IMG/VR virus record: IMGVR_UViG_3300020456_000005
Origin: a virus
Strand: one strand, 5' to 3'
Length of the DNA stretch: 64,000 nucleotides
A program made the position numbers and the translations under genes. The number at the start of each line of letters is the position of its first letter. The stretch's first letter is position 1. Below the pieces are notes generated by a model. The model ran no database searches. It had not been told where the DNA came from and saw only the letters and a list, made by a program, of their open reading frames with translations. Below, one piece after another: positions 4,692 to 64,000 of the stretch.

Positions 4692-6080
4692 ATGGCAAAT
4701 TACGGTAGAATTAAATCAACGAAAATCGCCCCAATTGGCACAATTATGCCATGGGGTGGTGGTTCAGCGATTGGGGAAAGTGGGGATAATATACCAAGAG
4801 GTTGGATTGTATGTAATCCTGCTACTCAGATACTAAATGCTGCAGATTATCCATTGCTCGCTAAAGTACTTGGAAATACATATGGACCATTTCCTGAACC
4901 AACTGATACTACATCAGTTATTGGAGTTAATTTTGGCATCGTAAATAATTTTCCTTATAATCCAGATTCCGATAGTGATCGTCATGATGCATCAAAACAT
5001 GTAGATCGGTTTGGATTACCTAATTTAAATCAACTTGCATTAGTTGATATTGAAGCAGCTAGAATACCAACTGATGCTCTATTAGAATTGGGAACATATA
5101 TTAGTAAAAATGGAACAGAAGGTGATTTACCAGATACAGAACCAGATGTTGATGTTGATATTACTTTTACAGTAGAACCATCAGATAATATGGCTGGTAG
5201 AATTACTGGAATTACATTATCAGATCCAATTTATACTGATACAGTGTATGTTTTACCAAGAAAACTTGGTAATGACCATACTCCAGCGCATACACATAGA
5301 CCAGCTAGTGATAGTGAGTTTGATAAATTTACAGGTGTACAACCACTTGCTAATCCATTGATGGAATTCCAACCAGGAACTGGACTACCTGATAATGCTG
5401 GTAAGATTGAAAGTGTCACGGCAATTGGAAACAGAGGTACTAATTCTCCCCCACATACATTTTTACGTGGAGAACGTGATGTTACATGGTTTGATGAAAA
5501 TGATGGTGGATTAACTGTCCCAATATTAGACAAAAAGATTAATATTCCATTTAATATGGCACTTGTTCCTCAGAGTGTTGGTACTTCTAGGACAATACCA
5601 AAGGTAAATAAAATTGAGAATGAATATACAGATAATGGTTTGTCAATAGAATTTGTGCAAACGCAAGCACATACAGGAGCATTTCCTCCTGCTGGAAGAT
5701 ATCAAGGAAGAAGAAACTATTATCCATCTCCAGATGTTCCCGATTATCATAGAGGAGTGGATATGCCACAGGCATATATCAATGATCCTCCATTTGTATT
5801 AGGAGAACAACAACAAATTACTTTAGGAGTTACAGATACATTCGCATCAACTCTAGATCACGAGTCTGATCGTTGGCTAGATAGTACATTGAAGTCGCAT
5901 ACTCACGATGCAATGGAGTTGACGATGAATCGTGGAAGTCTTGCTATACCAACAACGGTATTGGTTAATAACGTTTCTACTGGTACTACAGTTCCTGTTA
6001 GTGTTGATACCGCGTTGACAATTGCAGTTAATCCAAATACACCATCACTAACAATAATGTATATTATTAGGGCGTTTTAA
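4692..6080 (+). CDS. Tail collar domain protein (short tail fibre / gp10-gp12-like)
   Basis: APIGTIMPWGG..PRGWIVC..DYPLLAKVLGNTYG..FGLPNL collar motif, HxHxH motifs, C-terminal PSLTIMYIIRAF. Confidence 0.8.
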   Translation: MANYGRIKSTKIAPIGTIMPWGGGSAIGESGDNIPRGWIVCNPATQILNAADYPLLAKVLGNTYGPFPEPTDTTSVIGVNFGIVNNFPYNPDSDSDRHDASKHVDRFGLPNLNQLALVDIEAARIPTDALLELGTYISKNGTEGDLPDTEPDVDVDITFTVEPSDNMAGRITGITLSDPIYTDTVYVLPRKLGNDHTPAHTHRPASDSEFDKFTGVQPLANPLMEFQPGTGLPDNAGKIESVTAIGNRGTNSPPHTFLRGERDVTWFDENDGGLTVPILDKKINIPFNMALVPQSVGTSRTIPKVNKIENEYTDNGLSIEFVQTQAHTGAFPPAGRYQGRRNYYPSPDVPDYHRGVDMPQAYINDPPFVLGEQQQITLGVTDTFASTLDHESDRWLDSTLKSHTHDAMELTMNRGSLAIPTTVLVNNVSTGTTVPVSVDTALTIAVNPNTPSLTIMYIIRAF

Positions 6081-16037: not shown

Positions 16038-16082
16038 ATCTGTCACACTGACCTCTGGCACCACACTCTAATGCCCTATAAT
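16026..16082 (+). promoter_or_regulatory. Early promoter with palindrome
   Basis: TGCCAGTTgtgaATCTGTCACA (16026-47), TATAAT 16077-82. A second degenerate copy lies at 16004-16022. Confidence 0.75.
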
Positions 16083-19442: not shown

Positions 19443-19581
19443 TGCTCTTGAAGAAGAGTATCAGGACTGGTTAGAGATCAAGCGTAGTCTAGGTATCAAG
19501 AGAACAATTAAAAGTTTTTTGTATTTTATCCACAACTATGGCATACCTGACAAAGAAGGAGGCAGTATGGATCTGCCGTAA
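19420..19581 (+). CDS. Small hypothetical protein (GTG start preferred over 19369)
   Basis: EEEYQDWLEIKRSLGIKRTIKSFL. Confidence 0.55.
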   Translation: MAKIALTDALEEEYQDWLEIKRSLGIKRTIKSFLYFIHNYGIPDKEGGSMDLP

Positions 19582-22938: not shown

Positions 22939-23096
22939 ATCATCTTACACCTGAAGAATACATGTATATTCGTACTGTACTCGCACGTACATCATCATAT
23001 ACTATCGCACGTGCTGAACAAATAGATCTCCCTACTGTGAATCATAAACTACTCACACGTAAAATTGATAACATTATTCAACGTATGCACCGATGA
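22935..23096 (+). CDS. Small hypothetical protein (53 aa, not in ORF track)
   Basis: MNHLTPEEYMYIRTVL...; ATGA overlaps at both ends. Confidence 0.6.
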   Translation: MNHLTPEEYMYIRTVLARTSSYTIARAEQIDLPTVNHKLLTRKIDNIIQRMHR

Positions 23097-23644
23097 TCAT
23101 TAAACATCAAGAAAATGTCAATGTGATCACTGCCAAATACCCTGATCTCTCTATTAATCAACAGTTGTACACTGATGCACATACTATTGGTTGGAAAGAA
23201 TTTAATGTATCAACTGTACGTGTCACTCATATGTCTGATTGGTGGGTAGAATCACCTGCTATTGATACCATCGTTGATTGGGTAGCACATACTATTCAAC
23301 AAAATGTACAATACACATTAGATCACACATTCACTATTGTGTCAACATGGTTCGCTAAGTATTCAAAAGATGATTACTCACTCCCACATCATCACATCCC
23401 AACACAATACTCTTTTGTATACTATGTTAGGACACCACCTAATTCAGCACCACTCCTTCTCCCATCATCTAATACATCTATCCCAGTAGAAGAAGGACTT
23501 GTTGTTATACTACCAATGGGAACTATACATGGTGTTGACAAATGCCAAACTGATGATAGACTAGTCCTAGCAGGTAATTTCTATCTCACACCACCAGGAA
23601 TGACAGTACAAATGGATGGATTCTACTCGGGGGCAACTAAATGA
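23093..23644 (+). CDS. Putative 2OG-Fe(II) oxygenase (paralogue of 21860-22354)
   Basis: WFAKY..PHHH..YSFVYYV..HGV..RLVLAGNF. Confidence 0.85.
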   Translation: MIIKHQENVNVITAKYPDLSINQQLYTDAHTIGWKEFNVSTVRVTHMSDWWVESPAIDTIVDWVAHTIQQNVQYTLDHTFTIVSTWFAKYSKDDYSLPHHHIPTQYSFVYYVRTPPNSAPLLLPSSNTSIPVEEGLVVILPMGTIHGVDKCQTDDRLVLAGNFYLTPPGMTVQMDGFYSGATK

Positions 23645-23901
23645 CATACACTCCTAGAGTTAATGATAGAGTTAAATGGAGAGATGATGAGGGTTGGGTC
23701 TATTGTATTACTGATCAATACTTCACACTAGAAGTATCAACCAAACCAATGTCAGAAGAAACAGCACAACATACTAAACATAGACAACATCATTGCTTAC
23801 TAGTTGTGCCCATTAATCAATACAATAATGTACAATACCTAGGACATAGACAATCACAATACGATGACACCATCACTCAAACTATTCAAACAAACAAGTG
23901 A
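23641..23901 (+). CDS. Hypothetical protein
   Basis: 86 aa, YTPRVNDRVKW..EGWVY. Confidence 0.7.
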   Translation: MTYTPRVNDRVKWRDDEGWVYCITDQYFTLEVSTKPMSEETAQHTKHRQHHCLLVVPINQYNNVQYLGHRQSQYDDTITQTIQTNK

Positions 23902-24094
23902 TAAACCATACGATAGACATCACTATCTACTCGTCACTAAAGACAACAAATCTATCATGTTTGATGACTATGAACAACTTAGAGCAGTCTGGTTTCAACG
24001 CTGTCACACTGGTATGCTATCACATGTCATAGTACAAGATAATGTACAATATAATACACATGTCCGCGCCAGTGATACCAAGGGTTTTAAGTAG
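23864..24094 (+). CDS. Hypothetical protein
   Basis: 76 aa, FKQTSDKPYDRHHY...KGFK. Confidence 0.7.
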   Translation: MTPSLKLFKQTSDKPYDRHHYLLVTKDNKSIMFDDYEQLRAVWFQRCHTGMLSHVIVQDNVQYNTHVRASDTKGFK

Positions 24095-24096
24095 GT

Positions 24097-24117
24097 TGTG
24101 GAAAACCCTGTGGAAAA
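24097..24117 (-). promoter_or_regulatory. Two tandem cyanobacterial-type DnaA boxes (TTTTCCACA)
   Basis: TGTGGAAAA at 24097-105 and 24109-117 in intergenic DNA. Confidence 0.55.
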
Positions 24118-24196
24118 CTTTAAAAACATTAAATAAATGGGGGTAAGGTGCTGTGTAGATACTGTGAAGGATCTGTTAAGGTACTCTGGAGACGCT

Positions 24197-24225
24197 ACCT
24201 TAGCCCGCAACCTACCGAAAGTCAA
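24197..24225 (-). promoter_or_regulatory. Leftward sigma70 promoter TTGACT-17-TAAGGT
   Basis: Reverse complements of AGTCAA (24220-25) and ACCTTA (24197-202); 31 nt from the palindrome edge at 24233. Confidence 0.6.
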
Positions 24226-24232
24226 GTAGGAG

Positions 24233-24292
24233 TGTGCCAGTTCTTTTAGTGGCACAAAAACCCTCGGAAATGACTCGGAGGTGCTTTATAAT
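24233..24292 (+). promoter_or_regulatory. Early promoter with the most symmetric palindrome copy
   Basis: TGTGCCA-gttcttttag-TGGCACA (24233-56), TATAAT 24287-92. Confidence 0.8.
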
Positions 24293-24326
24293 AAACTCAA
24301 GAACACAGAAATCTCACTTTTTCGCT

Positions 24327-24381
24327 TTTTTGAGTTTTTCGGAATTCTTAAAAAGTCAAAATTTAAGATTTTTGAGTTTTT
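24327..24381 (+). repeat. T-rich direct repeat TTTTTGAGTTTTT x2 in AT-rich leader
   Basis: Copies at 24327-39 and 24369-81. Confidence 0.7.
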
Positions 24382-24400
24382 TTAACTTTTAATCTTTAAC

Positions 24401-24634
24401 ATGTTTGTGAAAACCTACGAAATCAAGGACTCTAGTGCTATTTTCTCCCTTAAATCGGAAGAAAACAGTGTATTTGTTGTGTATAACAGCAATCTAGACA
24501 AAGAATACGAGTTTAATTGTAAAAATGTACAAGAATTTGACGAAAAAGTGTCAAATACTCTGAAAAATGAAGAATCTATTGGTAAACTAGTAAATGTAAG
24601 TATTAAAGAAGGTCTAATCACCCCAACTAAATAA
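24401..24634 (+). CDS. KTSC-like small protein
   Basis: SSAIFSL..VFVVYNS..EYEF..ESIGKLVN resembles the KTSC pattern. Confidence 0.55.
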   Translation: MFVKTYEIKDSSAIFSLKSEENSVFVVYNSNLDKEYEFNCKNVQEFDEKVSNTLKNEESIGKLVNVSIKEGLITPTK

Positions 24635-63091: not shown

Positions 63092-64000
63092 ATGATGCAT
63101 TCTCTCCTTTTAGTATATGGAACTCCAGATTCCAGTACTCCACCTACTAATGCTTTGGGATATGAAATTTTTCATCCCGATGATATGGATGACGAGCGTC
63201 AAGGAAAAATTGTTTCTGATGATGCTGGAAATGTTTATGGAATTACATCTACCTCATATTATAAAATTGATTCAAACGGAGATCTTCAATGGGAGAAACT
63301 AATACCATCGGAGTATGGACCAGCAGGTAATAAAGCATTAAAAAATATTGCTGTTTCTCCAAATGGGACATATCTAGCAATTGGTGGATGTGGTGGAAAT
63401 GAAGGATTGAGCGGTTATGGAGAATCTGCAATATTATCTCAGATTAATACTCAGACTGGAGATTCAATCAAACACTATTCAACTTATGATGGATCTGTAA
63501 ATCAGACTGCTAGATACGCACAAGTAAAAGATATTATTGTTGGTAACGATGGATTATGTACTTTAATTGGAGATCTATATGGTATTGGTGGTGCTCCATA
63601 TAATGAATTTTTAAAATTTTTAGTTGATTTTCCTAATCAAACTATCCTTTCGTCAATAGGAGAAACTGACGGTACATATATGGAGCAGTGGTTTGATGTT
63701 GATCAGAATGGTACTGATATTGTTCTCGGTGGTCTTGATGTTGAAAATAATCAGCAAGGATTCCAATGTTATAATTGGACCAAAATGAATAGGACGACCG
63801 ATGCTATTGTATGGTCAAAAACTTGGCAATCAAATAATGGAAATGGTATTGCTGGAAGGGGTGTTTGTATAGATTCAACTGGAGTTGTGTATGCTGGATT
63901 TGATGATCAACCTGCACAAACAAGAGGAATAGTTCGTTTTAATTCAACAACTGGAAATGTTGATACTGCTTTTAAAATACATTATACATCTGGTGATTTT
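63092..64000 (+). CDS. Beta-propeller protein (3'-truncated by window, not in ORF track)
   Basis: ATG 63092 stays open to the window end: SDDAGNVYG..KIDSNGDLQW..IAVSPNG..CIDSTGVVYAG. Confidence 0.7.
   Translation, partial: MMHSLLLVYGTPDSSTPPTNALGYEIFHPDDMDDERQGKIVSDDAGNVYGITSTSYYKIDSNGDLQWEKLIPSEYGPAGNKALKNIAVSPNGTYLAIGGCGGNEGLSGYGESAILSQINTQTGDSIKHYSTYDGSVNQTARYAQVKDIIVGNDGLCTLIGDLYGIGGAPYNEFLKFLVDFPNQTILSSIGETDGTYMEQWFDVDQNGTDIVLGGLDVENNQQGFQCYNWTKMNRTTDAIVWSKTWQSNNGNGIAGRGVCIDSTGVVYAGFDDQPAQTRGIVRFNSTTGNVDTAFKIHYTSGDF

Follow-up and report, generated by a model that had tools for sequence, protein, structure and literature searches.

A conserved, single-copy non-coding cassette around an early promoter of T4-like cyanophages, with optional DnaA boxes and a possible role in replication

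The intergenic gap and its neighbours

The stretch of DNA analysed here, referred to as the window (64,000 nucleotides; IMG/VR record IMGVR_UViG_3300020456_000005), belongs to a T4-like cyanomyovirus whose best matches in a phage collection, Synechococcus phages of the family Kyanoviridae, share only about 70% identity with it. Its plus strand carries nearly all of the genes, and a block of small, early-type genes lies at 14–30 kb between large virion genes. The 306-bp gap at 24095–24400, delimited by the end of an upstream ORF at 24094 and the start of the next conserved ORF at 24401, is the largest non-coding stretch of the window, as a preliminary description of this DNA had claimed, the runners-up being 178 and 173 bp long. 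A larger ORF-free interval at 63303–63652 proved to be an ORF running past the end of the window and no true gap. All of the sequence features named in that description were found where it had placed them, and the locus comprises the following elements.

23864–24094, plus strand: upstream gene of 76 aa (DUF7441, phrog_897), whose 3' end abuts the first DnaA box
24097–24117, consensus on the minus strand: front slot with two co-oriented, perfect cyanobacterial DnaA boxes at a 12-bp period
24118–24139, plus strand: A/T box, conserved in alignments with relatives
24138–24203, plus strand: about six degenerate 11-bp direct repeats, with a copy number of 2–6 in relatives
24197–24226, plus strand: locus-specific conserved block, defined by invariant alignment columns and ending in an invariant 11-mer (24216–24226)
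24233–24256, no strand assigned: palindromic upstream element of early promoters, with perfect 7-nt arms and a 10-nt spacer
24287–24292, plus strand: rightward -10 hexamer TATAAT, with no good -35
24308–24316, plus strand: conserved 9-mer of the initial transcribed region, found in both orientations in some relatives
24317–24400, plus strand: leader rich in A+T, containing phased T/A tracts as well as nested inverted repeats and reaching to the ATG of the downstream gene
24401–24634, plus strand: downstream gene of 77 aa (phrog_4357), with a KTSC-type fold according to a fold search

The 77-aa protein encoded downstream of the gap is modelled by AlphaFold with a pLDDT of 89.5, and its best PDB matches are the KTSC proteins 7x8c and 4rgi (TM of about 0.6, probability 0.91–0.97); a Pfam search of this protein returned no family, the KTSC link coming from the fold search only. 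As modelled, the KTSC-fold protein is not an initiator, and no initiator-like gene is adjacent to the cassette. The gene order of a 2OG-Fe(II) oxygenase, two small genes, the gap, and the KTSC-fold gene is also found in S-PM2. Within the 3' part of the DUF7441 gene, a 12-bp tandem repeat (two copies, 91% match) occupies 24032–24055.

The plus strand upstream of the gap is C/A-rich, in agreement with the preliminary description, and exhibits a GC skew of -0.158 over the preceding 1 kb, within the lowest 0.6% of the window. In the window (23095–24094), Syn9, S-MbCM7, and ACG-2014e, the GC skew of the 0.5–1 kb before the cassette is close to the genome-wide minimum, ranking among the lowest 0.05–0.6% of 1-kb windows, whereas S-PM2 lies at the opposite extreme. 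The composition of the small genes located there may account for this skew.

A non-coding cassette conserved among cyanomyoviruses

The gap is one copy of a non-coding cassette that occurs between the same flanking genes in at least 48 cyanomyovirus contigs. A search pattern built from the most conserved part of the cassette matches in 46 IMG/VR contigs, four isolates have a 300–370-bp gap upstream of the homologous gene that can be aligned with that of the window, and each of four complete genomes contains the cassette once. The strict core pattern and DUF7441 were not found in Syn9, S-PM2, S-RSM4, or P-HM2; the cassettes of S-PM2 (about 19.2–19.6 kb), recognisable and diverged, with three DnaA boxes, and of Syn9 (about 52.5–52.8 kb), more diverged, with two, were found solely through those boxes. 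The order of the elements is constant, consisting of a variable front slot, the A/T box, 2–6 of the 11-bp units, the block with the invariant 11-mer, and the palindrome, followed after about 30 nt by the -10, the conserved 9-mer, and A+T-rich tracts that extend to the ATG. The non-coding block remains invariant even in relatives whose neighbouring protein is just 43–56% identical. Read from these alignments, the gap is a control cassette that acts at the DNA level, is conserved in single copy among T4-like cyanophages (Kyanoviridae), and is arranged around a rightward early promoter.

The 11-bp register of the repeats appears in the window as a repeat with 33-nt spacing and as three unit matches clustered in the array, and one relative (L009) carries a perfect 11-bp array of 2.7 copies. 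Elsewhere in the window, the 11-bp unit is not enriched (90 matches vs 85 expected), no second copy of the invariant block was found there, and an 8-mer within this block shows no enrichment over the window (7 vs 4.6 expected). A second invariant 11-mer, accompanied by a palindrome and a -10, is present in contig L056 at 5950–5989, in GC-rich surroundings 3.4 kb away from the main cassette, and thus the invariant 11-mer could possibly be part of an extended promoter element. In the window, a similar word stands 8 nt ahead of another promoter palindrome, the one ending at 16047.

Recognition of the cassette also corrects gene calls in several deposited genomes. In S-PM2 (NC_006820.1, 18690–19333), five RefSeq tRNA features (S-PM2t004 to t008) overlap protein genes and the cassette; ARAGORN detected no tRNA at the annotated features over this interval, and they look like the product of a coordinate offset in the annotation. 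The small ORFs gp86 and gp87 of Syn9 (NC_008296.2, 52477–52797) are annotated within the cassette-homologous region, which harbours DnaA boxes, the A/T box, the conserved block, and the promoter, and are probably no genes. The CDS S-MbCM7_061 (KF156338.1) measures 405 nt, compared with about 237 nt in its homologues, and its 5' part enters the cassette, so its start was probably called too far upstream.

Short ORFs within the gap are not conserved, and coding is ruled out because the relatives, which lack an ATG, differ by 11-bp units that break any reading frame. A late promoter at the A/T box was rejected as well, since the phage late promoters have a strict 8-mer that the box matches at only seven of eight positions, and worse in relatives. 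Another possibility is that the gap encodes a structured RNA, non-coding or cis-regulatory, whose transcription would begin at the A/T box and span the repeats and the invariant block. The plus-strand RNA does fold somewhat better than shuffled sequences (z = -1.97), and the minimum-energy folds of many relatives predict a closing helix that joins the 5' end to the segment preceding the invariant 11-mer. However, Rfam searches, at gathering scores over the whole window and with E up to 10 over 23950–24500, gave nothing but noise, ARAGORN matched no tRNA, and the RNAalifold consensus was weak on both strands. In a 19-sequence alignment, this consensus reached -4.2 kcal/mol with none of 14 pairs compensated, and the closing helix taken from single-sequence folds could not be upheld, cognate and non-cognate duplexes having practically equal energies (-9.33 vs -9.38, permutation p = 0.66). 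The palindrome behaves similarly, its fifth arm base being C in 24 relatives and A in 23 with no compensation, which leaves a mismatch in half of them, and the A/T box from which such an RNA would start is merely a near miss to a late promoter. A structured RNA is therefore regarded as extremely unlikely. As there is no RNA covariation, sequence-specific recognition of DNA is the simplest reading, and the conservation of the cassette is best read as protein recognition of DNA.

DnaA boxes in the front slot

The front slot of the window contains two perfect copies of TGTGGAAAA, at 24097–24105 and 24109–24117, with a 12-bp period and a 3-bp gap. The preliminary description had taken this word for the DnaA box of cyanobacteria, and it is indeed their 9-bp species-specific consensus (PMC4674748). 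No further exact copies exist in the 64 kb, 1.18 being expected over the whole window. The pair amounts to one 10-nt tandem duplication and is, for that reason, weak evidence when taken alone, the weight being carried by its recurrence in relatives. Across 48 loci (484 kb), 43 of the 73 box-like 9-mers fall within -250 to +350 of the cassette core, where 4.3 would be expected, so that DnaA-type boxes are enriched about ten-fold at the cassette, in about eleven lineages. They are arranged as direct pairs or triplets with a 12-bp period, and also as inverted pairs. Homologous pairs or triplets occupy the same place in S-PM2 and in three contigs (L033, L056, and L057), the window pair aligning column for column with two of the three S-PM2 boxes, and additional boxes are located within the leader of three other relatives (L047, L016, and L012). 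Outside the cassette, box pairs with 12-bp spacing were observed at nearby intergenic sites, at +1176 in L016 and at -575 and +1391 in L026.

Conservation of the box spacing had been named as a check on the preliminary description, and it holds in part. About one third of the relatives, including S-PM2, have boxes and keep the 12-bp spacing, but the nearest relatives have none, and 32 of the 48 loci lack any DnaA-type box at the cassette. Since the closest relatives of the window possess the cassette without boxes, DnaA is not essential to the core function of the cassette. On a tree derived from the rest of the cassette, the box trait requires a minimum of two changes, and the most parsimonious history has six (gains or losses). 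To judge by this distribution, the DnaA boxes are a real, recurrent, and optional input, and the front slot is exchangeable.

In the cyanobacterial loci compared, tandem box pairs of 11–12 bp are typical of box clusters, which comprise 3–9 boxes each. The status of the tandem-box loci as dnaN-linked origins was not borne out, as the flanking ORFs tested were not dnaN, and thus the "host-type" label of the phage boxes rests on the literature consensus. Several loci of Nostocales and other cyanobacteria (L068, L076, L086, L098, L101, and L132) share a TATAAT followed by an inverted DnaA box and, after about 10 nt, by two tandem boxes 2 nt apart; this TATAAT plus three-box architecture probably represents a conserved module, either origin or promoter, of filamentous cyanobacteria. 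In the window, a single perfect E. coli-type DnaA box stands in a short intergenic gap at 19525–19533, 4 nt before an ATG at 19538.

The cassette resembles cyanobacterial oriC in the same 9-bp box word and in two co-oriented boxes separated by 3 bp, but oriC typically has 3–12 boxes next to dnaN, whereas the cassette has two and no dnaN linkage (PMC4674748, PMC8287927, PMC10721633). By the DnaA-trio rule of at least three consecutive NAN triplets within 16 bp of the boxes (PMC8287927), on the strand and side established in B. subtilis and with the strand polarity of PMC10721633, the plus strand shows only two NAN triplets 5' of the boxes, whereas four follow on the 3' side, within the A/T box; the side to which the rule applies was assigned with some doubt, and runs of NAN are common in AT-rich DNA. 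The box pair of a basal unwinding system is co-oriented, at most 3 bp apart and matched to the species, and the cassette boxes have all of these properties.

P1 oriR, pSC101, and RK2 are iteron origins of plasmids or phages with accessory DnaA boxes, and in the lambda pR/oop region DnaA modulates transcription next to the origin; at origins with accessory boxes, DnaA is a host-supplied accessory and not the sole initiator. The cassette is like the iteron origins in combining host DnaA boxes, short direct repeats, and an A+T-rich segment. It is unlike them in that it lacks an adjacent gene for a Rep-type initiator and can do without the boxes, and in that the phage brings a T4-type replisome.

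The preliminary description had also offered a DnaA-titrating decoy, in which the boxes would soak up host DnaA and thereby stop initiation of the host chromosome, the rest of the cassette being unrelated. The box words are perfect matches to the host type, the sites would be multiplied by amplification of the phage genome, and some relatives (L047 and L057) have 5–9 boxes at the locus. However, two boxes, as in the window, are too few for a plausible DnaA sink and fall short of the high density of datA, and two thirds of the loci manage with no box at all. Moreover, the boxes always occupy one slot of one cassette instead of being scattered, and the complete relatives without cassette boxes show no box cluster elsewhere. 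Titration of DnaA is thus considered very unlikely to be the purpose of the boxes.

The early promoter, the leader, and a possible role in replication

The palindrome at 24233–24256 had been singled out as the most symmetric of the early region, and it is present as described, but it also serves other loci, about a dozen early promoters of the window having it as their upstream element. These copies share half-sites and stand 29–31 nt before a -10, and a loose palindrome pattern yields 11 plus-strand matches at 28–32 nt from a -10, compared with 3–8 at other spacings and 4 on the minus strand. Because it is common to about a dozen early promoters at a fixed spacing of about 30 nt, the palindrome is a general early-promoter element and no mark of an origin. 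The rightward TATAAT begins 31 nt past the end of the palindrome, as had been noted, and a -10-like hexamer is kept in 42 of 47 relatives, 37 of which have it starting 29–30 nt after the palindrome. This rightward early promoter is predicted to be usable by host RNA polymerase before replication starts.

To the left of the palindrome, the minus strand of the conserved block holds the promoter-like pair TTGACT (24225–24220) and TAAGGT (24202–24197), with a 17-bp spacer, the distance from the end of its -10 to the start of the palindrome being 31 nt. The preliminary description had proposed that this leftward promoter drives a G/U-rich antisense transcript across the boxes, which would serve as an R-loop primer with the help of DnaA. 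About the palindrome, the pair mirrors the rightward -10; its -35-like hexamer does not vary in any of the relatives, 27 of 47 have a TGn extended -10 context, and in four of five genomes the 0.5–1 kb on the left ranks among the most negative GC skews, which would make a leftward transcript G-rich and prone to R-loops. However, although the pair itself stands, its -10 is not kept, the essential final T being found in only 4 of 47 relatives, most of which have TAAGCC, and a consensus promoter scan did not list the leftward promoter; an antisense primer transcript is therefore no conserved feature. Furthermore, the upstream skew of S-PM2 is opposite, the minus-strand RNA has no fold signal (z = +0.24), and the boxes across which the primer would run are missing from the nearest relatives. 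Priming by a leftward transcript thus appears unlikely.

Downstream of the rightward -10, the conserved 9-mer is strongly enriched, with 54 copies in the leader zone vs 4.5 expected. The T/A tracts reported earlier were recovered as eight tracts in 24318–24390, on average 9.9 bp apart. At 77% A+T, the 100 bp starting at 24300 are the AT-richest of the early region at 14–30 kb. By nearest-neighbour stability, the leader ranks at about 2000 of 63,900 windows, among the least stable 3% without being the minimum of the window. The leader of S-PM2 is densely occupied by tandem repeats, including arrays of the 9-mer, and the Syn9 version of the cassette has a short leader only. In S-WAM2 and ACG-2014e (L003 and L004), an ATG 6–7 nt after the -10 opens a leaderless ORF of 18–33 codons; such an ORF spans the A/T-tract inverted repeat in some relatives, and the window has no such ATG.

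Origins of T4 share no motif; oriF and oriG consist of a promoter and an A+T-rich downstream element, whereas oriE consists of an early promoter and evenly spaced direct repeats whose role is unproven even in T4 (PMC3016281). The layout of the cassette, with a promoter and an A+T-rich repeat tract, resembles these origins, as the preliminary description had suggested. As in oriE, a promoter of early mode, independent of a phage factor, lies beside evenly spaced short direct repeats, of 12 nt in T4 and 11 bp in the cassette, which in both cases are conserved at the syntenic site in relatives. However, there is no sequence similarity to oriE, no genes like repEA or repEB are adjacent to the cassette, and oriE is close to a switch in transcription direction, whereas genes on both sides of the cassette are on the plus strand. 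The most active of the T4 origins, although not all T4 origins, are near such a switch, with a shift in compositional bias (PMC3016281). In common with oriF (uvsY) and oriG (gene 34), the cassette has a unit of about 100 bp with a sigma-70-type -10 followed by an A+T-rich element; in contrast, the promoters of oriF and oriG are MotA-dependent middle promoters and that of the cassette belongs to the palindrome-associated early class. Moreover, oriF and oriG are R-loop origins, whereas the cassette is predicted to yield a U-rich transcript. Since rU:dA hybrids are weak, a persistent R-loop formed by this rightward transcript is not favoured. Two related phages, Syn9 and P-HM2, have an annotated gp59-like helicase loader.

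The interpretation originally proposed is thus retained in part. A conserved, cis-acting cassette with optional boxes is present, and the antisense primer and the special palindrome find no support. We consider that the cassette may be an early-promoter origin of the oriE/oriF type with an optional input of host DnaA, a reading to which we would give a little less than an even chance. Its job would be to start the first rounds of phage DNA replication, as oriE, oriF, and oriG do in T4. Transcription from the early promoter would enter the A+T-rich, repeat-dense leader, where the duplex would open, and the transcript or the opened strand could then let the phage replisome load. The 11-bp repeats and the invariant block would be the sites of a sequence-specific protein and, in about one third of the relatives, the tandem boxes could dock host DnaA beside the cassette, helping or timing the opening. 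We infer the binding of DnaA, the transcription of the cassette, and any role in replication.

The cumulative GC skew, which could have marked the suspected origin, shows no inflection at the cassette in the window, S-MbCM7, ACG-2014e, Syn9, or S-PM2; in the window it climbs steadily through the cassette, and no consistent extremum lies there in the four complete relatives. It is also a point against an origin that about a dozen promoters share the type of this one, which simply precedes an ordinary small gene.

These observations bear on a purely regulatory alternative, in which an early promoter would have the 11-bp repeats and the invariant block as operator arrays and would take the boxes as a transcription-factor input with no role in replication, and the long U-rich leader would tune how well the mRNA of the KTSC-fold gene and of the small genes that follow is translated or how stable it is. 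Membership in an early family of about twelve promoters and direct reading into a conserved gene fit this alternative, as does the lack of a skew signal at the cassette. Response regulators of the OmpR/PhoB type typically recognise tandem 11-bp direct repeats, and by this analogy the repeats of the cassette could be such operators. In addition, the leaderless short ORF over the A/T-tract palindrome in some relatives looks like an attenuator, and box pairs at other intergenic sites near the cassette (L016 and L026) would be expected if DnaA were used as a transcription factor. However, the non-coding conservation and the single-copy state of the cassette exceed those of the other eleven promoters of the family, and its repeat unit and invariant block are found nowhere else in the window. 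DnaA-box clusters in phages and plasmids are mostly known from origins, and this analogy would also speak against a regulatory role alone. Pure regulation is accordingly a substantial possibility, although the chances are that it is not the whole explanation.

For T4-like cyanophages, a group that is among the most abundant viruses of the ocean, no experimentally mapped origin was found in the literature, and no publication dealing with cyanomyovirus DnaA boxes or with a mapped origin in these phages came to light; a review mentions a single theta origin predicted in Syn9 only (PMC2984593). Returning to the origin reading, we tentatively suggest, well aware that the proposal is somewhat more likely to be wrong than right, that the cassette is the unmapped replication origin of this large marine group. 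It would be a single, conserved origin with iteron-like 11-bp repeats and promoter-driven opening of an A+T-rich repeat tract, to which about one third of the lineages would recruit DnaA through the front slot, so that the onset of phage replication would be tied to the state of the host in terms of replication or energy.

A short, single-copy, conserved cassette offers a concrete place to look for the origin, and it is present in the best-studied models, S-PM2 and Syn9. If the cassette is purely regulatory, it would be an unusually elaborate early control region with a DNA-binding factor; if host DnaA docks there, it would represent a new route for a lytic T4-type phage to sense or use the replication initiator of its host.
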